Virus record (IMG/VR): IMGVR_UViG_3300011337_000231
Location: 1 to 25,116 of that record
Strand: one strand, 5' to 3'
Source of the DNA: a virus
Lineage: Duplodnaviria > Caudoviricetes
Length of the DNA stretch: 25,116 nt
In this document: piece after piece, positions 1 through 25,116 of the stretch
Numbering within the stretch: the first letter of the stretch is position 1
How the letters are laid out: each line of letters opens with the position of its first letter
Position numbers and translations under genes: made by a program
The notes under the pieces: generated by a model
What the model was told of the DNA's origin: nothing
Seen by the model: only the letters and a program-made list of their open reading frames with translations
Databases searched by the model: none

Positions 1-89
1 AGCTAAAATGCCTAGCATATCTTAAAGATTATAACAAGCACAAAGAACTAGAATACAAAAAATGGTCACTGCAAGCCAAGCTAAAGTAG
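1..89 (+). CDS. 3' end of a truncated CDS (LKCLAYLKDYNKHKELEYKKWSLQAKLK*), possibly a tail assembly chaperone C-terminus
   Basis: Frame from nt 3 is open to TAG at 87-89 and overlaps the next gene. The chaperone call rests only on position and the L..LAYLKD-like motif. Confidence 0.45.
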   Translation, partial: LKCLAYLKDYNKHKELEYKKWSLQAKLK

Positions 90-685
90 ACGGATTAATC
101 AACATCGGAGGGGTTTCCCGATCAGGGGTGAACTATGTCAAAGATGTAGATGCCATGCTTGTGAAGAATGTGACTCAGGCTATGGAAAAGCTAGGGGCAA
201 AATTAGCCTTGAAACTTTCAGAAAATGCACCTTCAGATACAGGTGCTATGGAAGGGGCTTTCAACTTTCTAGGGGTAAAAGAAACCAAGACAGGATACAG
301 GATTGAAATCAAGGTAGGTGTAGACTATGCTGATTACATAGATAAGGGTGTGAAGGGTATCCAAAACAGGCGGAAGACCTACCCAAATGCAGAAGGGAAG
401 CACTATCAATATAAGACCTATGGAATGCCACCTGAAGCCTTGCAACAGCTACAGGGATGGATGCAAAGAAAGAACATGGAGATAGAAGCCACAAACCTAA
501 TTGAAGGAAGGCAGATGCTCCCACAGATTTCTACTTCAGCAAAAAGACTAGCATACTACATCAAGAAATATGGTATTGAAGGAAGGCAGTTCATCAAGAA
601 ATCCATAGATGAAGCTACCCCTGATTTTCAAGTAGACCTTAGAACACTAGGTCAAGATACACTCATTCTAAAAGTAAGTAAATGA
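62..685 (+). CDS. HK97 gp10-like tail completion/neck protein
   Basis: 207 aa with AP.DTG, 'DYADYIDKG' and a C-terminal 'GIEGRQFIKKSID', motifs typical of the HK97 gp10-like family; lies in the tail cluster. Confidence 0.65.
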   Translation: MVTASQAKVDGLINIGGVSRSGVNYVKDVDAMLVKNVTQAMEKLGAKLALKLSENAPSDTGAMEGAFNFLGVKETKTGYRIEIKVGVDYADYIDKGVKGIQNRRKTYPNAEGKHYQYKTYGMPPEALQQLQGWMQRKNMEIEATNLIEGRQMLPQISTSAKRLAYYIKKYGIEGRQFIKKSIDEATPDFQVDLRTLGQDTLILKVSK

Positions 686-1863
686 TAACTCTCACACAGC
701 CATCTATAAGCATCCTTCCTGCTTTCAATAGGATAAACTATCAGATAGTTTCTACCAATGCTACAGAGGTAGGCTTCAAATATGTAGTCAAGGTCTACAA
801 TTCAGCAAATGAGTTGATAACCACTGCCTACTATGATTCACCTGCTGATGCATCTGATCCTGTGGAATTTGATGTCTCAAAATTTGTTTCTACCCAATTC
901 GAATACACCAAGGGATTCTATGAGACTGCTACTTCTTCTAACAGCACAAACATACTGAAGGGCTTCTACCTAAAGTGCTATGAGTACTATGAGGTGGCAG
1001 GAGAATTTGTGATAGTCCTTGCATCTGAGGTGATATCTGACACCAAGTATGCCCTTGCAGGGGCTTTGCCTTTGCTAGAATTGGATGATTGGTATGCTGA
1101 TGTGAACCTATACAATGGATCAAGCAATACTACCTACAAGCCTTTGACAGCATGGGATACAATCAAGGTCAGAGAATCAGATGCACAGGTATTCGGATTC
1201 ATAAACACAGGATTTCTGACAAATGTAGAACTACTTGTCACCTACAATAATGCCACCACACAGACATACTTCATTGCCAAGTCAGGAAGTGTGTACCCAA
1301 ATGTGAACTATTTTCAGATCACCCCTTTGACCTATGGGGGCAATGTAGCTTCAATTCAGCTATTTGTAAATTGGAATAATGGCACTGCAAGAAGGTACAA
1401 ATTTGCTACCCTATACACTCAGGAATGTGGTAAGTTTGATCCTATGCGGATAGCCTACCTGAACAAATACGGGGCATTCGATTTCTTCAATTTTGACCTA
1501 GTGAATAAGACTACTTTAAGCATTGAGAAGAAGGGCTATCAGAGAAACTATGACGGCAGCATCTATGAGGCGAATGGGGTAGTAGTGAAGAACACTAACC
1601 CTGTATACTTCACAAAAGAGATGCAATCTTGGAAGATCATTTCTGACTACCTGAATGATGCACAAAGCGAATTGATCAGGGAACTATATTCTAGTCCTTT
1701 GGTCTACATGAATCTTGTGAATGATAACTACATCAGGCCATCATGGATTCCTGTGAAGCCTACAGCGACATCCTACGAGATCAAAAAGACTGCGACTGAT
1801 AAACTATTCAACTTGGAATTAGACCTTGAATTTGGGCTTGAAAATAATCGACAGGTGATATGA
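682..1863 (+). CDS. tail/baseplate structural protein (distal-tail-like)
   Basis: 393 aa, beta-rich, with 'YLNKYGAFDFFNF' and 'ELYSSPLVY' motifs I associate with Bacteroidota siphophage tail proteins; overlaps both neighbours. Confidence 0.55.
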   Translation: MITLTQPSISILPAFNRINYQIVSTNATEVGFKYVVKVYNSANELITTAYYDSPADASDPVEFDVSKFVSTQFEYTKGFYETATSSNSTNILKGFYLKCYEYYEVAGEFVIVLASEVISDTKYALAGALPLLELDDWYADVNLYNGSSNTTYKPLTAWDTIKVRESDAQVFGFINTGFLTNVELLVTYNNATTQTYFIAKSGSVYPNVNYFQITPLTYGGNVASIQLFVNWNNGTARRYKFATLYTQECGKFDPMRIAYLNKYGAFDFFNFDLVNKTTLSIEKKGYQRNYDGSIYEANGVVVKNTNPVYFTKEMQSWKIISDYLNDAQSELIRELYSSPLVYMNLVNDNYIRPSWIPVKPTATSYEIKKTATDKLFNLELDLEFGLENNRQVI

Positions 1864-4037
1864 GTGCTAGACTATTTGTAGAAGGGGTGGAGGTAGATAC
1901 CCTAGGGAATATTGATGTAGAATTCACCTATTCGGTGGCTGATGTTACTGACATTGAAAGAATAAACACATCCTATTCACAGACTATCACACTGCCCTCA
2001 ACTTCAAAGAATCAGGGGCTATTCGGGAACATCTTTGATATTTCGGTATCCAATGACTACTACCCTATGGATGTAAACATAGGTCAGAACTTCAACCCTG
2101 CAAAGCAAGCCAAAGCACAAATCTTCCTAGACAATGTCAAAATATTTGACGGGGTGATCAGGATGATGAAGATCAATAATCTTTCAGGGAACATCCTATA
2201 TGAGGTGAATGTCTTTGGAAGACTTCGGGACATCCTTCATGAACTAGGGGATAAGACATTAGCTGACCTTGACTTTGATGACTATGACCATGTTTGGAAT
2301 AAAGCGAATATTGAGGCATCATGGGCTAGGACTGAATATGTCGAAGGCGGTACAAACTATGTCTATCCTTTGGTGGATTATGGCATCAGTACTGATGGGG
2401 TCACATACCCTATTCGGAACTTCAAGCCTGCTGTATATGTATCAGAAATCCTGTCAAGAATTTTCAGTGAGGCAGGCTTCCAAATTACAGCACCAATCTT
2501 CACATCATTCTACTTCAAGAAGTTGATTCTAGTGACGGCAGAGAAGATGATCACAAAGGAATCTACTACTCTGTTAGATCAAACCCCTGTCCTGTATCAG
2601 CAGGAAGTGACTACAACCCCTTCATTCTCCAGGCTGCTTAATTTCAGCAGTACTTTGGCATCAGGCTTTTTGATCCAAAATTCAGGAACTAGATTCAGAT
2701 GGAATAAGGCACAGAACCTGAATACAGGATTGAACTTGAATCTTAGGCTATCCTTCGAATCACTAGAAGCATTCACAGAAAATACATGGACTGTATCTGT
2801 GCTGAAAAATGGGTCACCTATTTTGACTTCTACTAGAACTGCTTCCTTAATTTCAGCAGGTCAGTTCTACTATTGGAATGTTGAGATTTCAGGGGGAATA
2901 GACCTTGCTTTGAATGACTACTTTGAGGTGAGACTCACAGGTCAGTCAGTAGGCAATGTAGGCTACAATCCGAACATTCAGTCTGAGGTAGTGATAGCAC
3001 CTATTGGATCACTTAAGATAGGGAACACTGTCCCTGTGGCAGTGGAACTTGAAGAAGGTGACACAATGAAGATTGAAGACACCCTGCCAAAGTCAATGAA
3101 GCAGCGTGATTTTCTCAAGTCCATCATATCGATGTACAATCTGTACATAACACAGGACAGGCTACGGACAAATGTCCTAGAGATTATCCCCTACAATGAG
3201 TTTTACCAAACCTTCAAGGATGAAGCCCTAGATTGGAGTGACAAACTAGATGTAGGTCAGGAGATCAGCATTACACCTTTGAGCGAATTGTCAGCGAAAG
3301 AATACAGGCTTGCATTTGATACAGATCAGGACTATTGGTCTGAATTCTACAGGACTAAATTCAATCAGGTATATGGGGAAAGCAGAACCATCATAGACAA
3401 TGATTTCATTTTAGACACAAAGACTGTCAAGGTGATCTTTGCACCACCTGTGATGAGGGAAGAAGTCCCAGGCAGAATCATGATCCACCTGTACAAGGTA
3501 GAAAATGGTGTGAAAATCCCTGATAACTTCAAGCCTAGGATAGCCTACTTCCTTCCAGGGGTGACTACTACGCAATGGAATATTGGATATGCAGCAGGGA
3601 ATACTCCCTATAATGTCTACCCATATGCAGGTCACTTGGATAGTCCTACAGAGCCTTCAAATGATGTGCTTTTTGCTTCCCCTAGGGAGGTATATTTCTC
3701 GATCGGGGTCTACCCTCAGAATAGTAACCTGTATACAGAATACTATCAGGGGCTGATAGACTCAATCGGTGATCGGAACAGCAGACTACTTGAAGGGTAT
3801 TTCTACCTAACACCTACAGACATCATGAATCTTGATTTTCGCAAGATCATCAAGGTAGGGAATCACTACTTTCAACTTGAAAAGGTGGATAAATACAATC
3901 CGATTGCAAACGGGTTAAGCTATGTTTCACTATTTAAGATACTTGGAAACATCAGCCCTGTGGACTATGACTTCATCCTTCTTGAGAATGATGCCTATAT
4001 GCTACAGGAAAACGGGGTAAATAGATTTTATATTTGA
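1860..4037 (+). CDS. tail tip/baseplate hub-like protein
   Basis: 725 aa; N-terminal 'SYSQTITLPST..N..LFG', 'YVYPLVDYG', 'DFLKSIISMYNL'; C-terminal 'LLEND.YMLQENG' motif; precedes the fibre gene. Confidence 0.55.
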   Translation: MSARLFVEGVEVDTLGNIDVEFTYSVADVTDIERINTSYSQTITLPSTSKNQGLFGNIFDISVSNDYYPMDVNIGQNFNPAKQAKAQIFLDNVKIFDGVIRMMKINNLSGNILYEVNVFGRLRDILHELGDKTLADLDFDDYDHVWNKANIEASWARTEYVEGGTNYVYPLVDYGISTDGVTYPIRNFKPAVYVSEILSRIFSEAGFQITAPIFTSFYFKKLILVTAEKMITKESTTLLDQTPVLYQQEVTTTPSFSRLLNFSSTLASGFLIQNSGTRFRWNKAQNLNTGLNLNLRLSFESLEAFTENTWTVSVLKNGSPILTSTRTASLISAGQFYYWNVEISGGIDLALNDYFEVRLTGQSVGNVGYNPNIQSEVVIAPIGSLKIGNTVPVAVELEEGDTMKIEDTLPKSMKQRDFLKSIISMYNLYITQDRLRTNVLEIIPYNEFYQTFKDEALDWSDKLDVGQEISITPLSELSAKEYRLAFDTDQDYWSEFYRTKFNQVYGESRTIIDNDFILDTKTVKVIFAPPVMREEVPGRIMIHLYKVENGVKIPDNFKPRIAYFLPGVTTTQWNIGYAAGNTPYNVYPYAGHLDSPTEPSNDVLFASPREVYFSIGVYPQNSNLYTEYYQGLIDSIGDRNSRLLEGYFYLTPTDIMNLDFRKIIKVGNHYFQLEKVDKYNPIANGLSYVSLFKILGNISPVDYDFILLENDAYMLQENGVNRFYI

Positions 4038-4042
4038 TTGAT

Positions 4043-6655
4043 ATGGCAGATAAGAGAATAAGTCAACTGATTGAAAGGGTAGACATTGCGAATAATGATG
4101 TACTTCCTATAGTAGCAAGCGGTGCTACCACCACAAACAAGGTCACTGTATCAACCCTTCAGGATTGGATGCAGGACAACCTAGATGTAGGGGTCACCTC
4201 TGTAGGTCTATCTATGCCTTCAGCCTTTGTGGTATCAAATAGCCCTGTGACAGGAAGCGGAAATATAAGCGTTACAGGTGCAGGGACAGTCTCCCAATAT
4301 ATCAGAGGTGATGGTTCTTTGGCTGACTTCCCTTCAGGCGGTGGAGGTGGTGGTTCATCTGTTAACTACTACCTAAATGGTTCGGTATCTCAGGGTACTA
4401 TTGGAGGTATTGCCTACAAAGAGATGAACAAAGTCCCTGTACTAGGTGCAGGCACTGACTTTGTGGCTATTGCTGACGGATATCTTGCTTCATTCATAAC
4501 GGATGCAGGTGACCCTGCTTTGCTTGAAATCCCTGCGGGTAATTGGAATTTTGAAACTTACTTTTCTGCTTCTTCAGGTGGAGGTACTCCTTCCTTCTAT
4601 GTGGAATTATACAAGGTAGATATAGGTGGTACTGCTACCTTGATAGCTTCCAATTCGGGAACTCCTGAACTGATTGCATTTGGCACTACCATAACCCCTT
4701 ACTTTTCTACTTTGGCAGTACCTACTACTAGCCTAACTTTAACAGATAGACTAGCACTTCGGTACTATGTGGCACGCTCAGGTAGAACTATCACTTTGCA
4801 CACAGAGAATAGTCACCTTTGCCAAATCATTACCACATTCACCACAGGCTTGACTGCTTTGAATAGCTTGACGGCACAAGTTCAGAACTTCGCAACGGGC
4901 ACAAGTGGAACAAATTTTGGAATAAGTAGTACGGGAAGTACTCACACATTCAATCTGCCTACGGCAAGTGCTACAAATAGAGGTGCTTTGAGTAGTGCCG
5001 ATTGGTCTAGTTTTAATGGCAAAGTACCCTACACAGGTGCAGTAGCAAATGTGGATTTAGGGGTGTATAGTATTACTGCAAGTGCAATAAATTCAACAGG
5101 TTCAGGTTCTGTTGCAGGGCAGATTAATTTAAGAAGTGATGCCTTTTTCACTTTGGTAAATGGCTATGGAAGTATAGCTTCAGGGACAACTAATCAATTC
5201 AATTTATATCAGACTACAGGGGCAGGTGTTTTTCGTGGTGCTATTTTAAGTTTGAATAGCATCACTGCATCTGCTACAAGAACCTATACTTTGCCTGATA
5301 CTGATGGCACTTTAGCATTGACTAGTCAAATCCCTGCAAATATTGTGACAGGTACAGGGGGGCAGGGAAGGGTAGCCTATTGGGATTCGACAGGTGTAAT
5401 AAAATCTGACCCTGTTTTCCAATACAATGACTTTTCCAAAAGGGTAGGAATCGGAAGAACACCTACTGTCTCTTTGGATGTAGAAGGAGCGGGTTATTTC
5501 TCAGGTGCATTAGGTGTAGGAGGTGCTTTGAACGGGACTAGTGCGGTGTTTAGTGGTAATGCGCAAGTAAGTAAACTCCTTTTAGGAACTAGCACCGCAA
5601 ATTCTTATCGAATTAATTTGGTTGCAAATAGTGACTTTGACACCGCAGGCATTTTGCTTACCGACACAAATACAGGAGGCAGGTCTTATGCAATTGGTTC
5701 GTCAATTACAACTATTGGAAGTTTAGAGTTTAGAGATAATACCGCAGGTCAAAATAGACTGACAATCTCCTCCACAGGAGCAGCGACCTTCAGTAGTAGT
5801 GTTAGTGGAAGTCAATTTGTAGCAAATGGTAATTCAGCAGGAGGATTTGAAGGATTAAGAATTGTGAATGCATCTACAGGTGCAGCACAAATTGCATTAA
5901 ATAATTCTGCTCAGTCATGGCTAGTAAATACTAGAACTGACAATCAATTCAGCATATTTAATTCTACTGCATCTACTACTCCTTTGCTTATTTCAACCAC
6001 AGGAGCAGCGACCTTCAGCAGTAGTGTGACGGCTATTGGTCTTCTTCAAAGTAACGATAGATTATATATGCCAGGAAATCAACCGATCGCGAATTGGTTT
6101 TCAAGTAGTTTGTCGGCGGGTTATAGTTCAAGCAATGGATACGGATGGGTAAATGGAGCAGGTAATCTAGTTCTTGGAACGAATGGAAGCGAAAAAATTA
6201 GAGTAACAGGTGACGGCTTAACCTTTAACGGAGACACAGCAGCAGCAAATGCCTTGGATGATTATGAGGAAGGGACTTGGACACCTGAGTTTATTGGAGG
6301 CGGAGGAACTGCAACATACTATAGTAGAAGGGGATGGTATACTAAAATAGGTAGACAAGTTACTATAGTTTGGCAAGTATCATTTCAAAAAGGAGCGATC
6401 ACTAGTTCATTAGGAATGAGTGGTCTTCCATTTGTTGTGTTAGCTGATAGCAGTTCTTTTTATCCTCAAGGTACTGTCCTTTTAGATAATTTATTAATTG
6501 CTACTAATAACATAACTTTTCAAGTTGCAAATGGATCAACTCAAGGAGATTTTATTGGTGGCAATGGTGGCACAACAGGCCATACAGGTTTATCTGCGTC
6601 TTCATTAGGAATGGGAACTATGATGTGCAGAGGAACTGCAACTTATTTCGTTTAA
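4043..6655 (+). CDS. tail fibre / receptor-binding protein (mosaic)
   Basis: G/S/T-rich, starts MADKRISQL (ATG 4043 preferred over the track start at 4034). Has a poly-Gly hinge, repeated (S/T)TGAATFSSSV, and an 'ANALDDYEEGTWTP' distal motif common in aquatic phage fibres. Confidence 0.8.
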   Translation: MADKRISQLIERVDIANNDVLPIVASGATTTNKVTVSTLQDWMQDNLDVGVTSVGLSMPSAFVVSNSPVTGSGNISVTGAGTVSQYIRGDGSLADFPSGGGGGGSSVNYYLNGSVSQGTIGGIAYKEMNKVPVLGAGTDFVAIADGYLASFITDAGDPALLEIPAGNWNFETYFSASSGGGTPSFYVELYKVDIGGTATLIASNSGTPELIAFGTTITPYFSTLAVPTTSLTLTDRLALRYYVARSGRTITLHTENSHLCQIITTFTTGLTALNSLTAQVQNFATGTSGTNFGISSTGSTHTFNLPTASATNRGALSSADWSSFNGKVPYTGAVANVDLGVYSITASAINSTGSGSVAGQINLRSDAFFTLVNGYGSIASGTTNQFNLYQTTGAGVFRGAILSLNSITASATRTYTLPDTDGTLALTSQIPANIVTGTGGQGRVAYWDSTGVIKSDPVFQYNDFSKRVGIGRTPTVSLDVEGAGYFSGALGVGGALNGTSAVFSGNAQVSKLLLGTSTANSYRINLVANSDFDTAGILLTDTNTGGRSYAIGSSITTIGSLEFRDNTAGQNRLTISSTGAATFSSSVSGSQFVANGNSAGGFEGLRIVNASTGAAQIALNNSAQSWLVNTRTDNQFSIFNSTASTTPLLISTTGAATFSSSVTAIGLLQSNDRLYMPGNQPIANWFSSSLSAGYSSSNGYGWVNGAGNLVLGTNGSEKIRVTGDGLTFNGDTAAANALDDYEEGTWTPEFIGGGGTATYYSRRGWYTKIGRQVTIVWQVSFQKGAITSSLGMSGLPFVVLADSSSFYPQGTVLLDNLLIATNNITFQVANGSTQGDFIGGNGGTTGHTGLSASSLGMGTMMCRGTATYFV
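5772..6027 (+). repeat. 31-nt direct repeat CCACAGGAGCAGCGACCTTCAGyAGTAGTGT (5772-5802 and 5997-6027)
   Basis: 30/31 identical and 225 nt (75 codons) apart; read directly from the sequence. Confidence 0.9.
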
Positions 6656-6667
6656 ACAAAAAATAAA

Positions 6668-6934
6668 ATGGCTTTAACAGAAAAAACAATCGTAGACAAA
6701 ATAGAGATTCTTGAGAATAACTCTATACAGGTAAGGACTGCAAACATTATTGAAAAAGATGATGTAGAAATCACAAGAACCTTTCATCGTTATGTGGTCA
6801 ATCCTAGCAATGACATCAGCGGAGAAGATGCCAAGGTACAAGCGGTAGCAAATGCCATTTGGACTGAGGAGATTATTTCTGCCTATTTAGAATCACAAAA
6901 CCAAAACCAAATACAAGATGAAAGTAACGCTTAA
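6668..6934 (+). CDS. small fibre-associated protein (putative fibre chaperone/cap)
   Basis: 88 aa 'IQVR...R.FHR.V..P..D.S.ED..VQA.ANA.WT', directly after the fibre gene. Confidence 0.6.
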   Translation: MALTEKTIVDKIEILENNSIQVRTANIIEKDDVEITRTFHRYVVNPSNDISGEDAKVQAVANAIWTEEIISAYLESQNQNQIQDESNA

Positions 6935-7058
6935 CGAAGAACAAATCAAAATGCTTGAAGCATGGGCACAGGAACTGCCTACAAAGTACGGGATGTCCTT
7001 CATCCAATTCCTAGCACAGCAAGTGCAGGAGCAGAACCCGAAGGAAGAAGCAGAATAG
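6918..7058 (+). CDS. 46-aa hypothetical protein (MKVTLNEEQIKMLEAWAQELPTKYGMSFIQFL...)
   Basis: Below the ORF-track cut-off; AACCAAA-type leader; fills the gap before a hairpin. Confidence 0.7.
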   Translation: MKVTLNEEQIKMLEAWAQELPTKYGMSFIQFLAQQVQEQNPKEEAE

Positions 7059-7064
7059 TACAAA

Positions 7065-7087
7065 TGGGGAATCAAATCGATTCCCCA
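7065..7087 (+). other. intergenic stem-loop TGGGGAATC-aaatc-GATTCCCCA
   Basis: Perfect 9-bp stem with no U-tract directly behind it; may be a weak terminator or an mRNA stability/processing element. Confidence 0.6.
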
Positions 7088-7108
7088 AACCTTTAAAAAC
7101 CCCAACCA

Positions 7109-9304: not shown

Positions 9305-9315
9305 TACTTAAAGAC

Positions 9316-10356: not shown

Positions 10357-10379
10357 ATACTAAACGAATACTTACAATT

Positions 10380-10976: not shown

Positions 10977-10977
10977 A

Positions 10978-11934: not shown

Positions 11935-11951
11935 TTTGAATTAAAAAAATC

Positions 11952-11975: not shown

Positions 11976-11999
11976 TTCACAATCTAAATAATAAAAAAT

Positions 12000-15572: not shown

Positions 15573-15574
15573 TC

Positions 15575-16061: not shown

Positions 16062-16066
16062 GCGAA

Positions 16067-17201: not shown

Positions 17202-17215
17202 CTAAAACCAAATAA

Positions 17216-18097
17216 ATGGAACTTACCAAAATTGCAAGGAATGTGCATAGCCTTTCACTTAGCAAAGAGGAGAACAGGGTGGCACTTTTGTCTGACATCC
17301 ATTGGGACAATCCCAAGTGTGACAGGGATATGCTTAAAAGACATCTTGACTACTGCCTTGAAAATCAGATGCCCGTTTTTATCAATGGAGATTTCTTCTG
17401 CTTGATGCAGGGCAAAGGTGATAGAAGGGGGAATAAAAGCGATATCCTGCCTGAGCATAACAATGCCAAGTATTTGGATAGCATAGTAGAAACGGCTGTA
17501 GAATGGTGGTCACCTTATGCATCTATCTTGACTGTGATAGGATATGGCAATCATGAGACTGCGATCATCAAATACCAGGAAACAGATTTGCTTCAGAGAT
17601 TTGTAGACCTGATGAACTACAAAAACAATAGCAACATTTTCACAGGTGGATATGGTGGATGGATTGTTCTGAAATATCAGGTAAGGAATAATACTTCAAT
17701 GACAAAAAACCTGAAGTACTTTCATGGATCAGGTGGTGGAGGTATAGTCACCAAGGGTGCAATCAACTTGACTAGGGCTTTGGAAACCTATGAGAATATG
17801 GACATTTTTGTGATGGGTCATATTCATGAGAATTCAAGCAGGAATGATGTCAGGGATACCCTGCACTACAATCAGGGGAAGAGGGTCTATGAATTACAGC
17901 AGAAGCAGATTCACCTTACTCTCACAGGATCGTACAAGGAAGAATACGGGGATGGATCACATGGGTGGCACATTGAAAGAGCAGCACCTGTCAAGCCTGT
18001 AGGTGGTCGAATCCTGACCTTGAATGGCAGGAGATTTGTTAAGGATGGCTTAGAGAATTATGAACTTCTAGTAGACTCACAAAAATTCCCATTGTAA
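17216..18097 (+). CDS. calcineurin-like metallophosphoesterase
   Basis: DIH, GDFFC, GNHE, FHG and GHIH motifs in canonical order. Confidence 0.85.
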   Translation: MELTKIARNVHSLSLSKEENRVALLSDIHWDNPKCDRDMLKRHLDYCLENQMPVFINGDFFCLMQGKGDRRGNKSDILPEHNNAKYLDSIVETAVEWWSPYASILTVIGYGNHETAIIKYQETDLLQRFVDLMNYKNNSNIFTGGYGGWIVLKYQVRNNTSMTKNLKYFHGSGGGGIVTKGAINLTRALETYENMDIFVMGHIHENSSRNDVRDTLHYNQGKRVYELQQKQIHLTLTGSYKEEYGDGSHGWHIERAAPVKPVGGRILTLNGRRFVKDGLENYELLVDSQKFPL

Positions 18098-18633
18098 TGG
18101 ACAGAGAACAGACAAGGATAGCAGGAATATTCTTTTTGATCGGGGCAATAGTAGCTATCATTCTATTCCCAAAGAGGGAGATAGAGACCATCTATAAGAC
18201 TACCACCAAGATAGAAAAGGACACGATCTATGTAGCCTCCACAGATACTATCTACATCCCAAAGACTAGGATTAAAACTCAAGTTTTGAGGGACACAATC
18301 CTTCTCGATTCTAAGCCTAAAATTAGCCTGTTTCAGGCATCCTTTCCTTTCGAGTATGGAAGTACCAAGGTGAGCGGTGAAGTCCTTGGAGAAGTCCTAA
18401 AAATGACTGCTATCAATGACTATACTATTCCTGTGGTGACCAATACAATCACAGAGACAAAAACAGAGAAGGTGATTGTGAAACCGAAGGGATTATACCT
18501 AGGTGCAGCAATCAATTCAGTTCTTGATCCTAGTGTGAAAGTAGGCTACTTGGATAACAAGTATTTGTTTCAATATGGATATCAGCCTTTCGAAAAAATA
18601 CACACACTAAGTGTTAGCAAAAAACTATTCTAG
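18097..18633 (+). CDS. membrane-anchored lysis accessory protein (spanin-like candidate)
   Basis: N-terminal TM helix, repeated DTIY/DTIL motifs, C-terminal amphipathic strands ending in Phe. Confidence 0.5.
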   Translation: MDREQTRIAGIFFLIGAIVAIILFPKREIETIYKTTTKIEKDTIYVASTDTIYIPKTRIKTQVLRDTILLDSKPKISLFQASFPFEYGSTKVSGEVLGEVLKMTAINDYTIPVVTNTITETKTEKVIVKPKGLYLGAAINSVLDPSVKVGYLDNKYLFQYGYQPFEKIHTLSVSKKLF

Positions 18634-18634
18634 G

Positions 18635-18880
18635 ATGTGGATTGAAATAGATGTGATGCTGTCAGGTAGTACTATGGATTGGAAAGAATTGGGACTTGAT
18701 GTCAAGCATGAATTTGTCAGAAGGATGGTAAGGGTTCAGGACATAGCCTATGTACAGGAATTGGTGCATGATATCCAGGTGATATCCTTCTATGATAAGA
18801 CTAGCTGTCTGATCAGGGGTGAATACCAAAGGATCAGGGATGAAATCCTGCATTTAGATCAGGAAGAAGAAGACCTATAA
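18635..18880 (+). CDS. 81-aa hypothetical protein
   Basis: ATG 18635 lies 1 nt after the previous stop; last gene of the + strand late block. Confidence 0.7.
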   Translation: MWIEIDVMLSGSTMDWKELGLDVKHEFVRRMVRVQDIAYVQELVHDIQVISFYDKTSCLIRGEYQRIRDEILHLDQEEEDL

Positions 18881-19106
18881 GTTCAAAAAGTTTCACTATT
18901 TGTAAACCTATGAGTATATGCTGTTACCTTTTTGCATAATTCTGTAACAAATACACCCCTTTTTTGTTACAAGTGTAGACAAATTGTCTACAGTTATTCG
19001 GATAATTCCCGAATATGTCCTTGATTTTTTACAGGTTTTGTCAGGCTAATGTAAAGTATCTTATACATTAAGGGGGCAAAATGTAAACTAGCGTTTACTT
19101 TATCAT
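18881..19106. repeat. array of adjacent, mutually different inverted repeats between convergent genes
   Basis: IRs at 18943-18971, 18974-18992, 18995-19015, 19047-19070, 19083-19098, plus weaker ones. Confidence 0.8.
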
Positions 19107-19298
19107 TCATTCTGCATGAATTTTTCCTAGATATTCATCTACTATCTGCTTGATACTGACTTCCTTTTCCATGCTATCCATGTAGAACATCAGCCCTGCA
19201 TTTGATGATGTGCTGTAGTGCTTGATGAACCAATTCAGAAACAGACCTAGTTCATTCTTTTGATCAGTCAAAGAAATCCCATTTTTCATTCTCTTCAT
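19107..19298 (-). CDS. hypothetical protein, 60-63 aa
   Basis: Part of the minus-strand block; overlaps the upstream gene; the start may be 19289. Confidence 0.6.
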   Translation of the reverse strand: MKRMKNGISLTDQKNELGLFLNWFIKHYSTSSNAGLMFYMDSMEKEVSIKQIVDEYLGKIHAE

Positions 19299-19602
19299 TC
19301 ATTATTCTTTGAAACTTTGTAAGGAGTTCCATCTGATTTGGCTGTTCCTTTTTGTGCAGAATCTTCAGCAGCACTAGGTATCCTATCAGGTCATTGATGA
19401 CATCTTCATCATCCTTGTCAAGGCTTCCATTCTTGATTCTCTTTAGCTTATCATCTATCCTGACCTTCAGCCCTTCTTCAGGTGTCAGGTCTGAGAATAT
19501 CCCTAGGGGTTCTATGGCTGAATTGCCATACTTCTGATTCTTTGCTATCAGCATTTCTGTGATCTCTGATAGGACTTTATAGACTTCTTGGTGAAAATTC
19601 AT
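19264..19602 (-). CDS. DUF1599-like (nucleotide-modification-associated, all-alpha) protein
   Basis: 'KNQKYGNS', 'VRIDDKLKRI', 'DLIGYLVL' motifs; ATG 19602 is coupled to the upstream stop. Confidence 0.7.
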   Translation of the reverse strand: MNFHQEVYKVLSEITEMLIAKNQKYGNSAIEPLGIFSDLTPEEGLKVRIDDKLKRIKNGSLDKDDEDVINDLIGYLVLLKILHKKEQPNQMELLTKFQRIMNEENEKWDFFD

Positions 19603-19688
19603 GATAGACATTCAAATAGGTAAATGATAGCAATGGCAAAGATAAGGGTGTAGGCTACAAATAAAAGACAGCCCTTAATCTCTCTCAT
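19599..19688 (-). CDS. 29-aa single-TM peptide (MREIKGCLLFVAYTLIFAIAIIYLFECLS)
   Basis: Exactly bridges the two neighbouring minus-strand genes, with an ATGA overlap. Confidence 0.6.
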   Translation of the reverse strand: MREIKGCLLFVAYTLIFAIAIIYLFECLS

Positions 19689-19923
19689 AGTTCTGCCTGA
19701 ATGATTTGAACCTATCCCCATGCAGGTACTGAGATGTCCTGAACTTTGATCTTCCCTTCTTGACTAGTAGGCCATCTTCAAAAAGCACATAGAATTCATT
19801 CTCTGCTATTGCCTCATTCATGTCTAGGTAATCCCACCACCATTCAGCAGGCTTTCTATTTTCATCTATGACCTTTGAGGCTTTCCCGTACCCAAAAGGA
19901 TTCAGGATTTCTGATTCTTCCAT
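19675..19923 (-). CDS. 82-aa hypothetical protein
   Basis: First gene of the leftward block. Confidence 0.7.
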   Translation of the reverse strand: MEESEILNPFGYGKASKVIDENRKPAEWWWDYLDMNEAIAENEFYVLFEDGLLVKKGRSKFRTSQYLHGDRFKSFRQNYERD

Positions 19924-20071
19924 AAGAAATTTTCTGCATTTATACGGCTAAAAATCGACATTCTTAAAAAATATCAGATTTTGTTTAAAATATTTTTACT
20001 TAGTTGTAGGATTCTAATTTATTTATTCGTTTCTTTGATTCATCAAACAGGGACATAAAACCAAAAACACC
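19924..20071. promoter_or_regulatory. AT-rich divergent control region with degenerate -7 box (TTTCTTTG 20030-20037)
   Basis: Lies between divergent genes; shares a 13-bp element with the promoter at 22280. Confidence 0.6.
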
Positions 20072-20287
20072 ATGAACAGTAAACTTATTAGCAAAAAAAC
20101 AGATGCAAACGGAAACGAAATTTTAATTTATAGGCATTTCGTTTTAGCAGGAATGGAATTTTGTTATGCAAATGGCACAACAAAAAATAATAAAATTAAA
20201 AAGGTAGCTAGTTACACTTACCAAATAATTTATTCCCCATTGGGCGAAACAATATCTGAAACAAAAGGCAAAACAGTCTTTTATTAA
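20072..20287 (+). CDS. 71-aa AT-rich hypothetical early protein
   Basis: AACCAAA leader; followed by its own hairpin. Confidence 0.7.
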   Translation: MNSKLISKKTDANGNEILIYRHFVLAGMEFCYANGTTKNNKIKKVASYTYQIIYSPLGETISETKGKTVFY

Positions 20288-20294
20288 ATGAAAT

Positions 20295-20316
20295 GCCCCT
20301 TCGGGGGCTTTACTTT
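20295..20316 (+). terminator. GCCCC-TTCG-GGGGC-TTTACTTT hairpin (cUUCGg tetraloop)
   Basis: 5-bp GC stem, extra-stable loop, T-rich tail. Confidence 0.75.
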
Positions 20317-20329
20317 AAACCCTAAAAAA

Positions 20330-20584
20330 ATGAACTACAATTTAGACCACTACACAGATCAAGAAGTTGACTTCACCTATGATGGCATTGACTACAAATG
20401 GATAGGTGACTACACCATCGAATACTATGGTGAAGATGAAAGCGAATTTGCACCTGCCTACGGGGAGATGGAAGTCAGAATCAATCACACATCAAGCCTC
20501 ATGTCTTATGAAGATGGTGCTGATATAATCCCTACAGCATCTATCCTGATGGCAGTAGAACTAGAAATAGAACGCAATCAATAA
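20330..20584 (+). CDS. 84-aa acidic hypothetical protein
   Basis: ATG 20330 after an A-run is preferred, because the track start at 20288 crosses the hairpin. Confidence 0.7.
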   Translation: MNYNLDHYTDQEVDFTYDGIDYKWIGDYTIEYYGEDESEFAPAYGEMEVRINHTSSLMSYEDGADIIPTASILMAVELEIERNQ

Positions 20585-20602
20585 CCAATAAATACAAACC
20601 AA

Positions 20603-21154
20603 ATGGAAAGATCACCAAGTATCACAAATCTCACACAAGCCCTAGCAAAGTTTCACACTATGGTAGGAAAAATTTCAAAAGATGCTGCAAATCCTTTTTT
20701 CAAGAAGAACTATGCAAGCCTTCCCCACATCATTGATGAGATCACAGAACCCCTAGAAAAGGCAGGGCTAGTGCTGATGTCATTCCCTGATGCTGAAGGA
20801 TTGACTACCATGCTATCCCATGCTGACAGCGGTGAATACATGGCTGCCACCTACACACTTCAGGTAGTTAGGCAGAATGATCCACAGGCACAGGGTTCTT
20901 CTATCTCTTATGCTAGGAGGTATGCCATTACAAGCATCCTGAATCTACGGATTTCAGATGATGATGCAGAGGCAGCCACAAGGCCTGTGAGACAGCAGCC
21001 TGTACCTACAAAGTTAGCACCTACTGAAGAGCAATTTGCCTACATAGTCAGATACCTGAATGGCACAGATGCACAGAAGAAGCAGGCAAAGGAAGCCATG
21101 AGCAAATACACTTTCAACAAAGACCAACAAGATACCCTAGACGGACTAATATGA
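20603..21154 (+). CDS. erf: ERF-family single-strand annealing protein
   Basis: 'NPFFK.NYASL', 'PQAQGSSISYARRYA...L.I..DDD' ERF signature. Confidence 0.9.
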   Translation: MERSPSITNLTQALAKFHTMVGKISKDAANPFFKKNYASLPHIIDEITEPLEKAGLVLMSFPDAEGLTTMLSHADSGEYMAATYTLQVVRQNDPQAQGSSISYARRYAITSILNLRISDDDAEAATRPVRQQPVPTKLAPTEEQFAYIVRYLNGTDAQKKQAKEAMSKYTFNKDQQDTLDGLI

Positions 21155-21633
21155 ACCTATACGAAATCACTCAGGAAGCACAGTATCTAGCTGTGCTTCT
21201 TGAAACTGAAGAACTGACAGCAGAACTAGAAGAAGCCCTGATCATTAATCAGGATCAACTTCAGGCAAAGGCTGTGAACTATGCAAAAGTGATAGCCAAT
21301 TTCCAGGCAGAATCAGATGCTATAGATCAGGAGATCAAGAGACTGAAGGCCATGAAGGAAAGTAGAGAAAAGAAGATTGAATGGCTAAAGGAATCTGTTA
21401 AGAAGGCCATGCTAGTTAGCGGAATTGAGAAGGTAGAAAGCCCACTTTTCAAGCTATCTGTGAGGAGATCAGAAGCGGTGGAGGTAGATGTAGTGGAAGC
21501 CCTGCCTGCTGCCTTTCAGAATGTCAAGAATGTGGTGACAGCAGACAAGGTAGCCATCAAGGAAGCCATCAAAAGAGGTGAATTTGTGATGGGTGCTAGG
21601 ATAGTAGAAAACTTCAACCTACAGATCAAATGA
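21151..21633 (+). CDS. Siphovirus Gp157-family protein
   Basis: 'MNLYEI', coiled coil, 'DKVAIKEAIKRG..V.GA......LQIK'; adjacent to erf. Confidence 0.88.
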   Translation: MNLYEITQEAQYLAVLLETEELTAELEEALIINQDQLQAKAVNYAKVIANFQAESDAIDQEIKRLKAMKESREKKIEWLKESVKKAMLVSGIEKVESPLFKLSVRRSEAVEVDVVEALPAAFQNVKNVVTADKVAIKEAIKRGEFVMGARIVENFNLQIK

Positions 21634-21818
21634 GCCCTGATATAGATAAGTGCATAGGGACAAATTGTCCCCACAAAGAAACCTGCTACAGGTATACGGC
21701 TTTGCCTAGTGAATACCAATGGTATTTAAAGCCTCCTATCAAAGACGGGAAGTGCGATATGTATTGGGGAAAGAACGCTGAAAATATTTGGAATCAACTT
21801 AAAGAAATTGTCAAATGA
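21630..21818 (+). CDS. 62-aa Cys-rich protein (C-x4-C-x5-C...C)
   Basis: Four cysteines; ATGA overlaps on both sides. Confidence 0.7.
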   Translation: MSPDIDKCIGTNCPHKETCYRYTALPSEYQWYLKPPIKDGKCDMYWGKNAENIWNQLKEIVK

Positions 21819-21961
21819 ATAACTATCTATACCTAGGAAAATTTATCAAGAGACCTGGAGACCTAGCCCCTAAGGGGGTGAAGTCTACCTGTCAGACAGA
21901 AAGGCTACCATTCAATGAAACCTTTGAAAGATTATGGCATCTCATAAGTTCCAAAAAGTGA
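21815..21961 (+). CDS. 48-aa hypothetical protein (MNNYLYLGKFIKRPGDLAPKG...)
   Basis: ATGA-coupled to the upstream gene; fills the gap. Confidence 0.65.
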   Translation: MNNYLYLGKFIKRPGDLAPKGVKSTCQTERLPFNETFERLWHLISSKK

Positions 21962-22275
21962 GCAGGACTATACTATACCTGTATTCACAAGGATACACGA
22001 AAGTGCAGATTGCAGAAGGTCTAGGAATGAAAGATAGTCAGGTTACCTATGTCCTGTACACCCTGCTGAAGGTACATGAGGATCAGCCTAGGAAGTCCTG
22101 TGGTACTAGCCTAGTTGAATCAATGCCTAGGGATCAGGTGAACAGAATCATCACCTTGGCCTCATGGGGATATAATGGAAAGGAGATTGCAGAAGATACC
22201 TGCCTGCCTTACAATCGGATTCAGCTAGTGATCAAAGAGGCTACGGCAAAAAATTTGATAAAAAAATTTGTCTAG
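21934..22275 (+). CDS. tandem helix-turn-helix DNA-binding protein
   Basis: Two HTH-like repeats, 'LYSQGYTKVQIAEGLGM..SQV' and 'LASWGYNGKEIAEDTCL..NRI'; true start may be GTG 21958. Confidence 0.7.
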   Translation: MASHKFQKVSRTILYLYSQGYTKVQIAEGLGMKDSQVTYVLYTLLKVHEDQPRKSCGTSLVESMPRDQVNRIITLASWGYNGKEIAEDTCLPYNRIQLVIKEATAKNLIKKFV

Positions 22276-22279
22276 GGTA

Positions 22280-22309
22280 TTGTTTATTCTAATTTATTGT
22301 TTAGATTTG
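22280..22309 (+). promoter_or_regulatory. Bacteroidota-type housekeeping promoter TTG-N19-TAGATTTG
   Basis: TTG at 22280-22282 and TAnnTTTG at 22302-22309, 19 nt apart, intergenic. Confidence 0.75.
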
Positions 22310-22342
22310 TGAATCGAATAACAGCAAACAACCAAAACAGAC

Positions 22343-22546
22343 ATGGAAAATTTAATCAGTAAGAATCAGGAAGCACTTTCAACAGTAGACACCAAACATC
22401 TTCAGAAATTGTATGACTTTGTCAATGAGCAATTGATCATTCATCAGTTCAAAAGACATCTTGATTTAACAAAAAGAGATGAATATCAGCAAGATTGGTT
22501 TGACATTCAGCTAATCCTTCAGCAAAGAAATAACCTAACCAAATAA
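22343..22546 (+). CDS. 67-aa hypothetical protein
   Basis: First gene after the promoter; AACCAAA leader. Confidence 0.7.
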   Translation: MENLISKNQEALSTVDTKHLQKLYDFVNEQLIIHQFKRHLDLTKRDEYQQDWFDIQLILQQRNNLTK

Positions 22547-22550
22547 GATC

Positions 22551-22652
22551 ATGAAAAAAGCACTTAAAATCACAGGCAAGATTCTCTATTTCATCATTGC
22601 CCTGTCTCCCTTCTTTGCCCTGGGCTATATGCTAGGGATGAAATTATCGTAA
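22551..22652 (+). CDS. 33-aa single-TM peptide (MKKALKITGKILYFIIALSPFFALGYMLGMKLS)
   Basis: Fills the gap; basic N-terminus plus a hydrophobic helix. Confidence 0.65.
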   Translation: MKKALKITGKILYFIIALSPFFALGYMLGMKLS

Positions 22653-22674
22653 ACCAAAACAAACCAAAAAAGCA

Positions 22675-22980
22675 ATGGAAAATTTGACCATCAAAATTAC
22701 TCAAACTCAGGAGGTAGAATCTGAGGTATCTATACCAAAGTACTTCTGCATCAATAAGTACTACTACTACAAACTGATCTCAGAAAAAGCAGTCCTTGCA
22801 GTAACTTACTACACAGACAAGATAGAGAACATAGTAGCCCTAGAATTGTGGCCATCTATCAAGATAGAACACATCAGATATGTATCCTATATCCTGAAGG
22901 CTGACAACCTGGAAGAGATCACAGAAGAGGAGTTCAATTTACATCTAAATGCTGCAAAGAAATTAATCTATTCACTATGA
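22675..22980 (+). CDS. 101-aa hypothetical protein
   Basis: Double AACCAAA leader; 'EEITEEEF' motif. Confidence 0.7.
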   Translation: MENLTIKITQTQEVESEVSIPKYFCINKYYYYKLISEKAVLAVTYYTDKIENIVALELWPSIKIEHIRYVSYILKADNLEEITEEEFNLHLNAAKKLIYSL

Positions 22981-23180
22981 AGACTGACTCACAGAATGCT
23001 TTGATCAAGGGATGGCTATTGAATGGCCACTCCCTTACTACCCTAGATGCCTTGACTATGTTTGGATGCTTCAGGCTATCTGCAAGGATATCAAACCTGA
23101 AGGATCAGGGAATGAACATCACCACAGAAATGGTGGAGGTAAATGATAAACGAATAGCAAAATACTACCTAGCAAAATGA
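22977..23180 (+). CDS. small winged-HTH protein (HTH_39-like)
   Basis: 'G.SLT.LDAL..FGCFRLSARI..LK..G.NI.T'. Confidence 0.8.
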   Translation: MKTDSQNALIKGWLLNGHSLTTLDALTMFGCFRLSARISNLKDQGMNITTEMVEVNDKRIAKYYLAK

Positions 23181-23326
23181 GACGCAGATATCTAACAGAA
23201 TACGAAAAGGAACTCATCTTTGAAAGATGGCAGGACAGGATTCCTACAAAGGTCATAGCCATAGAATTAGGGGTCAGTTATATGTGCGTTTATAACCAAT
23301 TAAAAAAACGCTACCTAGTAGGATAA
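23177..23326 (+). CDS. 49-aa HTH protein (MRRRYLTEYEKELIF...IAIELGVSYMCVYNQLKK)
   Basis: ATGA-coupled; 'LT..E...I...IA.ELGVS...V' HTH pattern. Confidence 0.7.
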   Translation: MRRRYLTEYEKELIFERWQDRIPTKVIAIELGVSYMCVYNQLKKRYLVG

Positions 23327-23340
23327 TTCAAAAAAAGTTT

Positions 23341-23348
23341 TATATTTG
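23341..23348 (+). promoter_or_regulatory. -7 promoter box TATATTTG
   Basis: Exact TAnnTTTG directly upstream of the structured leader; no clear -33 TTG. Confidence 0.65.
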
Positions 23349-23351
23349 AAT

Positions 23352-23444
23352 ATCGAATTATTCCTGAGGTGAGAGGCAAGAATAATTCCATAGGTTAAAT
23401 TCAACCTGCCCGACAGACTCTCACCTGTTGGGCTTTTTTATTTT
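23352..23444 (+). ncRNA. structured leader/small RNA: three hairpins, the last an intrinsic terminator, with loop-loop complementarity
   Basis: Stems 23355-66/23377-88, 23392-96/23403-07 and 23408-16/23425-33 followed by TTTTTTATTTT; AGGTGAGAG (23367-75) is complementary to CTCTCACCT (23418-26). Confidence 0.7.
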
Positions 23445-23448
23445 CAAG

Positions 23449-24162
23449 ATGTTAGGATGGATTAAAGTTCACAGGCAACTTACTGACCATTGGATTTGGC
23501 AGAAGCCTGAGTATTTGAAATGGTGGCTTGATATTATCATTCAGGCAAACATAGAACCTAAGAAGGTACTGATCAAAGGTCAACTTCTAGAAGTCAACAG
23601 GGGACAGGTAATTTACTCCTATGATACCTGGGCGAATAGGTGGAAAATTAGCAAATCAAAAGTCATCAGGTTTTTAAAAATGCTTGAGAAGGATTCTATG
23701 ATAGTGCTAAAAAACGAAACGATAACGACACGGATAACTATCTGTAAATATGACACTTACCAAGGTGAGCGACACGATAGTGAAACGCAAGTGACACGCA
23801 CACGACACGCAAGTGACACGCAAGTGAAACCAACTAAAGAATATAAAGAATTAAAGAATGAAAGAACAGAAGAGAAGTACTTGTCTTTCGTAGAAATAGA
23901 AGCGGATATGGAAAAAGAGAAGCCCTTGAAAAGACCATACTTTAGAAGGATGTGTGAGATATATGACCTAGATGAAAAGACAGTAAGGGAATCATTCAAA
24001 AAATGGGCAGTCCTTAAAGAAGGAGAAGCAATGACTATAGACAAAGCACAGAATTCATTCAACCTGTACCTACAGAATAATTCAAAGACCTTGAAAGGAA
24101 CTACAGAAAAGGTGGAGGTATCAAAATACCCGAAGTCAACCCTAGAAGATAATTGGTGGTAA
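23449..24162 (+). CDS. replication initiator / replisome organiser (lambda O-like organisation)
   Basis: 'GWIKVHR.L..HWIW' N-terminus, wHTH-like region, 'ITICKYDTYQ' followed by an iteron-encoded linker; upstream of the helicase. Confidence 0.8.
   Translation: MLGWIKVHRQLTDHWIWQKPEYLKWWLDIIIQANIEPKKVLIKGQLLEVNRGQVIYSYDTWANRWKISKSKVIRFLKMLEKDSMIVLKNETITTRITICKYDTYQGERHDSETQVTRTRHASDTQVKPTKEYKELKNERTEEKYLSFVEIEADMEKEKPLKRPYFRRMCEIYDLDEKTVRESFKKWAVLKEGEAMTIDKAQNSFNLYLQNNSKTLKGTTEKVEVSKYPKSTLEDNWW
23714..23870 (+). repeat. iteron array (11-mers, consensus GTGACACGCAA) plus A-rich AAAGAAT repeats; putative replication origin
   Basis: Six tandem units at 23769-23834 and two more at 23714-23735, in the same 11-nt register. 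Confidence 0.8.
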
Positions 24163-24482
24163 TGGAATCAAAGCAGATACAGGAAATGAATGACCTGAAT
24201 AGGGATATTTGGGGAATGATAGTTCAAGCACAGAAGACTAAGAATTGGGCACTGATAGAAATCAACCTGAAGAGGCTGTACTCCTTACAAAAAAAGTATA
24301 TTAATATTATTAATATAATGGATTATGATTTAAAAGGTACTACCTTGGCATGGAAGGATGAGATCAGGGTCAGGAATCAATTTGAGAAGCAGTGGTTCAA
24401 GGATGTGGCAGAACGCAATGGGCACTACAAAGCAATGAAAGAGAACATAGATAAATACTTTGGTAATGAAGAGACAATCTGA
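24162..24482 (+). CDS. hypothetical protein between initiator and helicase
   Basis: TAATG coupling to the initiator; overlaps the helicase start. Confidence 0.65.
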   Translation: MESKQIQEMNDLNRDIWGMIVQAQKTKNWALIEINLKRLYSLQKKYINIINIMDYDLKGTTLAWKDEIRVRNQFEKQWFKDVAERNGHYKAMKENIDKYFGNEETI

Positions 24483-25116
24483 AAAGACATTTGACCTGGA
24501 CTTCTGCGAGGCTTCAATCAAAACCTTTGCAGCCCAAAAGGATTCAATGCTTCAGAACTTCCGTAAAGGAAAGGAAGCAGGATCAAAGACCTATGTGAGG
24601 GATATGGATCATGTCAGTAGTGGAGGGATGCAGAATAAGATGTGGTCATGGAAGGCAGGAGAATTTAACCTGTGGACAGGATACAACAATGAAGGCAAAA
24701 GTCAATTCCTGATCTTCCTTTGTGTATTGAAGGCAATAAATGAGGGGTGGAAGTTTGCATTCTTTAGCCCTGAGAACTACCCACCTGATGAGTTCTTTGA
24801 TGACATCATTCACACTATCCTAGGAAAGTCTACAGATAGAGCCTACAAGAATTTTGATGTGCAGGAAGATGAGTATCTGAGAGCCTTTGACATGGTGAAG
24901 GATAACTTCTTTTTTGTCTATCCTGAAAAGGACAAAGTGCCTGACTTTCGGATAGAGCAGATTGAATCTGTATTTGAATACCTTGTATGGGAGAAGGATG
25001 TGAAGGCAGTGATAGTAGATCCATACATCAAGATACGGCATGAGATGAGTGCAGGAGAACCTGAACACCTGTATGCATCTAGGTTCATGATGGACAGGAT
25101 CAACTTTACTAGAAAG
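24466..25116 (+). CDS. DnaB-like SF4 replicative helicase, truncated by the window end
   Basis: Open to the end (217 codons, absent from the track): Walker A 'TGYNNEGKS', 'FSPEN', Walker B-like 'VIVDPY'. Confidence 0.85.
   Translation, partial: MKRQSEKTFDLDFCEASIKTFAAQKDSMLQNFRKGKEAGSKTYVRDMDHVSSGGMQNKMWSWKAGEFNLWTGYNNEGKSQFLIFLCVLKAINEGWKFAFFSPENYPPDEFFDDIIHTILGKSTDRAYKNFDVQEDEYLRAFDMVKDNFFFVYPEKDKVPDFRIEQIESVFEYLVWEKDVKAVIVDPYIKIRHEMSAGEPEHLYASRFMMDRINFTRK

Follow-up and report, generated by a model that had tools for sequence, protein, structure and literature searches.

Two oriented blocks of CCAGG sites in a family of small freshwater tailed phages and their possible origin in host restriction

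The window analysed here is the 25,116-nucleotide sequence of virus record IMGVR_UViG_3300011337_000231, a 25.1-kb fragment from the genome of a small tailed phage whose sequences are present in riverine and freshwater metagenomes. Its gene set consists of tail genes, tape measure, protease, likely capsid, portal, amidase, Erf, Gp157, initiator and helicase. The assembly is genuine, since contigs from four public runs, some of which may be source samples, span 30 of 30 bins of positions 5200-25116. Two features of this phage and its relatives are described: the near-absence of CCAG followed by A, C or T (CCAG[ACT], taken with its complement), and the arrangement of the surviving CCAGG and CCTGG sites (together CCWGG) in two oriented blocks, for which a directional host enzyme is proposed.

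Site content and orientation in the window

CCAG occurs 15 times in the window, in every case as CCAGG, and CTGG occurs six times, five of them in CCTGG and one in TCTGG; 20 of the 21 sites fall within CCWGG. This recount, which also gave a single CCGG, reproduced all site coordinates and counts of an earlier interpretation made from the letters alone (the sequence-only reading). CCAG/CTGG ranked first among the depleted tetramers, with 21 observed against 163.4 expected from a Markov model (z -11). When the 21.9 kb of coding sequence was submitted to 200 synonymous-codon shuffles (one 249-bp minus-strand open reading frame, about 1% of the input, was entered as plus strand), 75-80 CCAG and 74-88 CTGG were obtained, compared to 15 and 4 observed. 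The shuffle minimum was 56-69 for either strand form and never came down to the observed numbers. The near-absence of CCAG[ACT] claimed before was thus upheld under both models, and codon or codon-pair usage was rejected as its source. CCWGG, in contrast to the normal frequency ascribed to it, is itself depleted, with 20 sites against 49 expected from a second-order model and 18 against 34-40 in the coding sequence, or about 0.4-0.5 of expectation, mainly because one orientation is missing. For CTAG, which had been called frequent (144 in the window), it was confirmed that the word is not avoided; there is, however, no excess of it (288 against 322 expected with both strands counted, and 1.1-1.46 times the codon null).

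The features on which the argument rests are the following.

2629..21307, plus strand: F block, 15 CCAGG and no CCTGG (sequence count); CCAGG at 2629, 3468, 3555, 6071, 7307, 8993, 9092, 11698, 13641, 14905, 15435, 16484, 17575, 18775 and 21303
21854..24499, minus strand: R block, 5 CCTGG (minus-strand CCAGG) and no plus-strand CCAGG (sequence count); CCTGG at 21854, 22619, 22908, 23627 and 24495
21303..21858, no strand: tolerated inverted junction CCAGG...CCTGG, 551 bp (sequence count)
1..2628, no strand: stretch without sites, forming the right-hand portion of the avoided CCTGG...CCAGG junction (sequence and relatives)
11909..11913, plus strand: TCTGG (CTGG at 11910), the sole CCAG[ACT]-type site, in Phe-Trp codons of the capsid gene
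14664, plus strand: the sole CCGG, in CCCGG at 14663..14667 (sequence count)
21815..21961, plus strand: open reading frame of 48 amino acids with a Pro-Gly-Asp codon (read from sequence and relatives)

The order of 15 CCAGG followed by 5 CCTGG is improbable by chance (Fisher 6e-5, permutation p 1.2e-4), and its Fisher value was the second best among 512 5-mer pairs. Nearly all genes of the window lie on the plus strand, yet the sites switch orientation. The complete separation of CCAGG from CCTGG was already visible, though unremarked, in the site lists of the sequence-only reading. In relatives the R block extends through the terminase region; in the closest of these (98% identity in a 393-amino-acid gene) the final CCTGG lies about 1.4 kb ahead of window base 1, which gives a gap of 3924-4049 bp to the first CCAGG.

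Since CCGG is banned and Pro-Gly always requires CCNGG, this dipeptide can be written solely as CCA GG or CCT GG. Pro-Gly forces 11 of the 20 surviving sites; the other nine are avoidable, and the idea that every survivor is forced was ruled out. In the F block, Pro-Gly is encoded as CCA GGN at 10 of 10 positions, though CCT leads the proline codons by 141 to 53. In the 48-amino-acid reading frame, the proline codon of Pro-Gly-Asp is CCT in the window and in two relatives (G013, G011) and CCA in two others (G004, G012), and it switches along with the block boundary. The word ACACAG, which is distributed 18:0 in the window, did not track the blocks in a pooled test.

Blocks, junctions and site loss among relatives

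Relatives were fetched by the capsid gene, the Erf gene and one tail gene, giving 240 loci (80 kept of 242, 122 and 142 relatives), to which 13 metagenome loci and 12 whole records were added. From 250 sequences of at least 4 kb, 61 passed a class filter that made no use of site order (<0.5 CCAG[ACT]-type sites, <0.2 CCGG and >0.2 CCWGG per kb), and 26 of them (360 kb) remained after dereplication. Unbroken CCAGG/CCTGG blocks were identified in all 26, with both orientations in 15; G004, which is near-complete, and G012, which is complete, each show exactly two switches. Among contiguous and gapped patterns of 4-6 letters, CCAGG was the sole word that followed the blocks, which are defined by CCAGG itself; a search for other polarised words returned its sub-patterns and nothing else.

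Divergent junctions (CCAGG, then CCTGG) measured 331-2541 bp in 10 of 10 distinct site pairs, like the spacing between sites of the same orientation. Convergent junctions (CCTGG, then CCAGG) measured 2978-5014 bp in eight of nine distinct site pairs, a length of at least 2900 bp being reached by 7 of 230 same-orientation gaps. The eight long junctions represent about four independent lineages, with one exception to the rule (L190). The position of the convergent gap varies by lineage, and unpolarised relatives carry many sites there. The position of the divergent junction shifts within about 2.5 kb of the early-gene region: it lies ahead of these genes in G013, past Gp157 in the window, in a helix-turn-helix gene in G004 and G012, and further right in L094. 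The switch intervals of the window, G013, G004 and L094 are disjoint, so that no fixed switch point exists. The arms of G012 differ in length (8-11 kb of 31 kb). Among sequences that narrowly miss the class filter, L294 and L293 keep the gap rule with 2911 and 2901 bp. The remaining relatives are unpolarised (G002, G005) or almost devoid of CCWGG (G003); no residual block bias was found in the unpolarised ones (77:44 and 24:17).

A second family, represented by G014, has the early module in common with the window's family and an unrelated capsid. Over its 30.6 kb, G014 carries CCAGG 39 times and CCTGG not once, without a switch, the initiator gene included. CCAGC and CCAGT are abundant in it, and CCAGA is found once against 39 expected. 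CCAGG orientation and the loss of CCAG[ACT] are thus separable traits. Among 49 loci dereplicated from 73 of at least 9 kb, five carried only CCAGG, with 14-30 sites (14-23 in the four besides G014), many were without CCWGG and many were mixed. In five nearly all-CCAGG loci, the gap after CCTGG was 3348, 2862, 2681, 1112 and 255 bp, and three of these fit the rule; same-orientation gaps of at least 2600 bp amounted to 5 of 153. GCGAG and similar one-strand words were also found in unpolarised members of this family and look like coding-strand bias. As separate observations, the asymmetric 5-mers CCAGA, ACAGC, CCTGC, CCCGC and CACTG are avoided on both strands in L100-L124 and G014, and in L432 AACAC/GTGTT stands in blocks (26 and 11 sites, 5 runs, p 5e-6), which may reflect repeats or a further oriented motif.

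Regarding the loss of CCAG[ACT], 47 such sites remain in the 360 kb of the window's class, most commonly in TCCAG context (30 of 47). At 757 aligned positions nine sites were kept, compared to 32-34% of control words, and every position of the word was used for escape, with 151 A-to-T, 128 G-to-A and 62 inner C-to-T changes. It was selection, rather than codon usage or deamination, that removed these sites, and the host defence proposed in the sequence-only reading is supported over codon usage and Vsr-type repair by shuffles and aligned changes alike. The involvement of an asymmetric motif was also confirmed. The set of missing CCAGN words varies among 63 dereplicated long sequences: some lack CCAGA only, others CCAGA and CCAGC, CCAGC plus part of CCAGT, CCAGG only, or all four. 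CCAGA, CCAGC and CCAGT are jointly gone in the window's class and in L187, and separately in other lineages. Of the outcomes named beforehand as refuting the sequence-only reading, that of several 5-6 bp sites is matched by CCAGA, CCAGC, CCAGT and CCAGG, which are lost independently by lineage, and that of codon usage was rejected.

The residual CCAG[ACT] sites are indifferent to the blocks (4 against 12 in F, 5 against 13 in R). In the permitted orientation, CCWGG outside Pro-Gly was found 57 times against 97 expected and CCAG[ACT]-type sites 22 times against 641, by a codon null that is partly circular. A single directional system acting on the 4-mer CCAG was therefore rejected, the residual sites being block-blind and those of permitted orientation being absent as well. 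Even within CCWGG, GCCAGG is scarce (9 against 101), and CCGG lies inside CCNGG at five of eight sites, without a clear rescue. It is more likely that CCAG[ACT] was removed by orientation-blind enzymes, several rather than one. In a different lineage (L227, L224, L007, L233, L230), CAG/CTG is nearly gone (33-44 in 11-14 kb) and CTAG and AGCT are near zero, with CCGG and CpG plentiful; this lineage possibly answers to a different, 3-bp target.

Genes, methylases and other avoided sites

The gene annotations used as markers in the window are given below.

10978..11934, plus strand: likely major capsid protein; match to phrog_11320, unknown function; the gene follows protease and scaffold-like genes and served to fetch relatives
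12952..14982, plus strand: portal protein, matched best among cultured phages by Nonlabens phage P12024 (28% over half)
20603..21633, plus strand: Erf-like annealing protein and Gp157/Gam-like protein, early-region markers
23449..25116, plus strand: replication initiator-like gene and helicase start (annotation)

The portal match points weakly to a Bacteroidota host. In the initiator-like gene, repeats spotted by eye at about 23770-23830 are likely iterons; four CCTGG lie to their left, so the orientation changes elsewhere than at this likely origin. A variant without the Erf, Gp157 and helix-turn-helix cassette (window positions 20316-22547, 2232 bp) was present at high depth in three of four runs, and cassette exchange between repeated promoter regions is the likely explanation for it. 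The promoter motif TAnnTTTG was not enriched in the window (25 against 22.6).

A C5 methylase, which the sequence-only reading had proposed to look for in the phage, was not found in the complete polarised G012, nor in G004, G007, G013 and G014. PF00145 scored above the cut-off in one of seven polarised records (G006; G004, G007, G011, G012, G013 and G015 being the others searched, with G012 and G004 the only ones at least 90% complete) and not in G014. In G012 no methylase of any type was found, the sole methylase of G004 is of the N6/N4 type, and none was seen in the close relative G013 from helicase to terminase. An almost identical C5 methylase is present in the polarised G006 and the CCWGG-poor G003. 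The methylase need not come from the phage. An accessory slot near the helicase (L257:1204-1896, L265:4049-4966, L083:8357-9070) varies in content and holds a Mom-family protein in G012 and the C5 methylase, with an overlapping opposite-frame reading frame, in G006 and G003; the N6/N4 methylase of G004 lies near it.

Many classical palindromic sites are also at or near zero in the window's class, among them GGWCC, GGNNCC, CTGCAG, ACGT, CCGG, the core AGCTC of GAGCTC, AAGCTT, GTGCAC, ACATGT and AGCGCT, and the host group likely bears many restriction systems. Gly-Pro is absent from the window proteins (0 against 14.4 expected) because GGN CCN forces GGNCC, of which the window has no site. Across the family it was counted twice against 104 in seven polarised genomes, and 2 against 39 and 5 against 37 in others; Pro-Gly is halved. 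The second family keeps both Gly-Pro (65 against 95) and GGNCC (244 sites). Site avoidance thus appears to have altered the proteome.

Readings of the pattern

We hold it somewhat more probable than its negation that two layers of host restriction explain the whole pattern, an orientation-blind one on CCAG[ACT] and a directional one on converging CCAGG. Several host specificities would have purged CCAG[ACT] by cutting in any orientation. In addition, a predicted ATP-driven nuclease would bind CCAGG/CCTGG asymmetrically, translocate to the 5' side of the adenine-bearing strand, like the Type ISP enzymes, and break both strands only upon head-on collision. Motors would then converge from CCTGG...CCAGG and diverge from CCAGG...CCTGG. 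A full purge of CCWGG is barred by the CCNGG requirement of Pro-Gly together with the ban on CCGG, and the phage would have escaped by orientation, with one block per direction and no widening of the divergent junction. When both orientations are present on a circular genome, one convergent junction is unavoidable; it would have been stretched to about 3-5 kb, past the likely cellular reach of the enzyme (about 3 kb); genomes of one orientation, the T7-like limit seen in related phages, would have no convergent junction at all. Site counts, block order, gap asymmetry, junction drift and the separability of the two traits are what was observed; the enzyme, its direction, its reach and the several specificities for CCAG[ACT] are what we infer from them.

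A likeness of working to Type ISP enzymes is claimed here, on comparison with published systems, and not membership. Parts of the published descriptions state that these enzymes cut head-to-head pairs only and move opposite to the side downstream of the methyl-adenine strand (PMC3553950), and that sites in the same direction give only nicks (PMC4666363); for LlaGI and LlaBIII, one-way translocation and convergence-only cutting correspond to the geometry avoided by these phages. The site is asymmetric, with one A in CCAGG and none in CCTGG. As the sole adenine belongs to the CCAGG strand, motors would converge from CCTGG followed by CCAGG, the junction that is gapped in eight of nine cases and not in any of the ten of the opposite kind. 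No phage footprint of Type ISP was found in the literature search, and no gene for such an enzyme was found.

Several points weigh against the two-layer reading. The agreement in polarity with Type ISP is one bit of information, and prototype targets of that type, as given in part of PMC4872093, have 6-7 bp at positions -1 to +6, whereas CCAGG has 5 bp and would need a contact at -2. The convergent pair of L190 lies at 299 bp, in a sequence placed on the tree next to a lineage that is partly mixed. Just outside the class filter the gap rule is broken in L015 (1940 bp), L299 (1937/1939 bp) and L245 (812 bp), and in the second family in L331 (255 bp) and L311 (1112 bp), while the gap of L338 overlaps a stretch that is empty in all-CCAGG relatives too. 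Both junctions fall in the same two zones in every lineage, though the polarised genomes scatter on two gene trees. Since a pure pair rule fails to predict such constant zones, descent and recombination among compatible genomes have to be invoked. Loss of CCAG[ACT] and polarisation are always coupled in the window's class, where a single cause would be simpler, and the codon null for permitted sites is, as noted, circular in part. As to the host, no prophage relative of the capsid was found in the host search, no cultured phage was found by capsid match, and the Erf matches were distant only and in mixed taxa, pointing to no host.

The account of the sequence-only reading, in which unmethylated CCAG is cut by one defence whatever its orientation and CCWGG is shielded by Dcm-type methylation of the host, comes next and is judged unlikely. 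Masking by a CCWGG methylase is not a full account, since symmetric masking cannot give a single surviving CCWGG orientation per place; to fit the orientation, a directional nuclease dependent on 5-methylcytosine (SauUSI-like) that reads one methylated CCWGG strand has to be added, so that three components are required. By analogy, such a motor reading one strand of a Dcm site would give the same geometry, and part of a SauUSI report describes head-to-head pairs as far better substrates than tail-to-tail pairs at low enzyme (10.1101/2025.10.16.682607). CCAGG and CCTGG are further named, in part of PMC10333322, as core methylated motifs of all Parabacteroides distasonis isolates. The joint loss of CCAGA, CCAGC and CCAGT in the window's class, the roughly 17-fold better tolerance of permitted CCWGG, and L187, which has no CCAG in 17.2 kb and keeps CCGG (other lineages are alike), are also consistent with masking. 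However, the four CCAGN words are lost separately elsewhere in the family, the five phages named above encode no C5 methylase that was found, GCCAGG is depleted within CCWGG, and CCGG is not clearly rescued within CCNGG. For the CCAG[ACT] part alone, host Dcm may mask a 4-bp CCAG target.

Orientation could alternatively be set by replication or packaging, a protein bound to the site harming forks from one side (BREX- or Ter-like); the blocks would then be replichores and the gap a termination zone or, in the packaging version, the headful ends. This is regarded as improbable. It agrees with the constant junction zones (one lies 1-3.5 kb to the left of the initiator gene, the other 3-7 kb to the right of the terminase genes), and a termination zone would likewise be free of sites. 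No genome ends were seen in the contigs. On the other hand, close relatives switch within disjoint intervals, four CCTGG precede the likely iterons on their left, the arms are about 1:2 with the antipode off the gap by 1.1 kb in G004 and 4.5 kb in G012, and G014 is switchless across 30.6 kb, through its initiator gene.

Still less probable is a canonical Type III enzyme (N6-methyladenine in CCAGG or N4-methylcytosine in CCTGG) or a MANTIS-type system acting on any inverted pair, with the two blocks as an unfinished route to T7-like uniformity. One-strand bias is known from T7 and MANTIS: T7 carries an asymmetric site in one orientation and so evades EcoP15I, an inverted-pair enzyme (parts of PMC3874151 and PMC12707154), and G014 and its relatives look exactly like T7. 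As a 4-6 bp asymmetric one-strand motif with adenine third, CCAGG matches the format of the EcoP1I site AGACC (part of PMC8259958), and an N4-methylcytosine enzyme on CCTGG would place the head-to-head pair at the avoided junction. Unlike T7, the window's family has two blocks on a circular map, where sites in one inverted geometry are tolerated 0.3 kb apart and those in the other stay about 3 kb or further apart, and its site is a Dcm/EcoRII pseudo-palindrome. Type III enzymes are described, in the portions of PMC3874151, PMC5737866 and PMC8259958 that bear on this, as cutting both inverted forms whatever the spacing, whereas inverted pairs at 331-551 bp are tolerated here. For MANTIS (Gao_RL), part of the report (bioRxiv 10.64898/2026.09.23.753747) gives best restriction of inverted pairs and one-strand depletion in virulent phages, but also 6-bp N6-methyladenine sites and a graded response, with no head-to-head over tail-to-tail preference seen in that part; the polarised word here has 5 bp and all flanking letters occur, which does not agree with a 6-bp hemimethylated target. 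CglI and BceSIV resemble the present case in that an ATP motor reads a pseudo-palindromic 5-bp C5-methylase site (GCSGC or GCWGC) one way; part of PMC5737866 names direct repeats as their best substrate, while the phage keeps direct repeats, some less than 100 bp apart. Ordinary Type II avoidance concerns palindromes without orientation, whereas CCAG[ACT] is asymmetric and yet lost from both strands.

Mutation bias, by deamination of 5-methylcytosine (CCAG to CTAG), whether or not Vsr repair takes part, or by codon-pair usage, can practically be set aside: CpG at 0.27 of expectation in the window and CCTAG/CTAGG at 1.5-2.3-fold over the codon nulls agree with it, but the change spectrum at the 757 aligned sites, led by A-to-T and G-to-A and with nearly all sites lost, rejects deamination and Vsr, CTAG is at expectation, and symmetric methylation yields neither orientation nor gap.

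In a literature search that covered few subscription papers, no supplements and no REBASE entries, no report was found of a two-block, geometry- or distance-specific avoidance or of an oriented CCWGG target, and nothing relevant was found on CCAG in Bacteroidetes methylomes, on CCWGG combined with directional helicase defence or on Gly-Pro loss. One-strand bias was already known from T7 and MANTIS.

A wider and more doubtful proposal is that freshwater bacteria bear an undescribed motor nuclease that reads the Dcm/EcoRII site CCWGG one way, cuts only between converging sites and has a reach of about 3 kb, and that at least two phage families were rebuilt around it. The two-layer reading predicts a specific enzyme (CCAGG, convergence from the 5' side, about 3 kb) and a scan applicable to any phage collection. 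The two-block layout would yield the direction of a motor and its working range inside the cell, figures that so far are mostly from in vitro work. The avoidance would be strong enough to set the codon choice for Pro-Gly and to strip Gly-Pro from the proteome. If the wider proposal holds true, the junction geometry of phage genomes would be a general readout, from sequence alone, of which motif an unknown defence motor recognises, which way it moves and how far it reaches.

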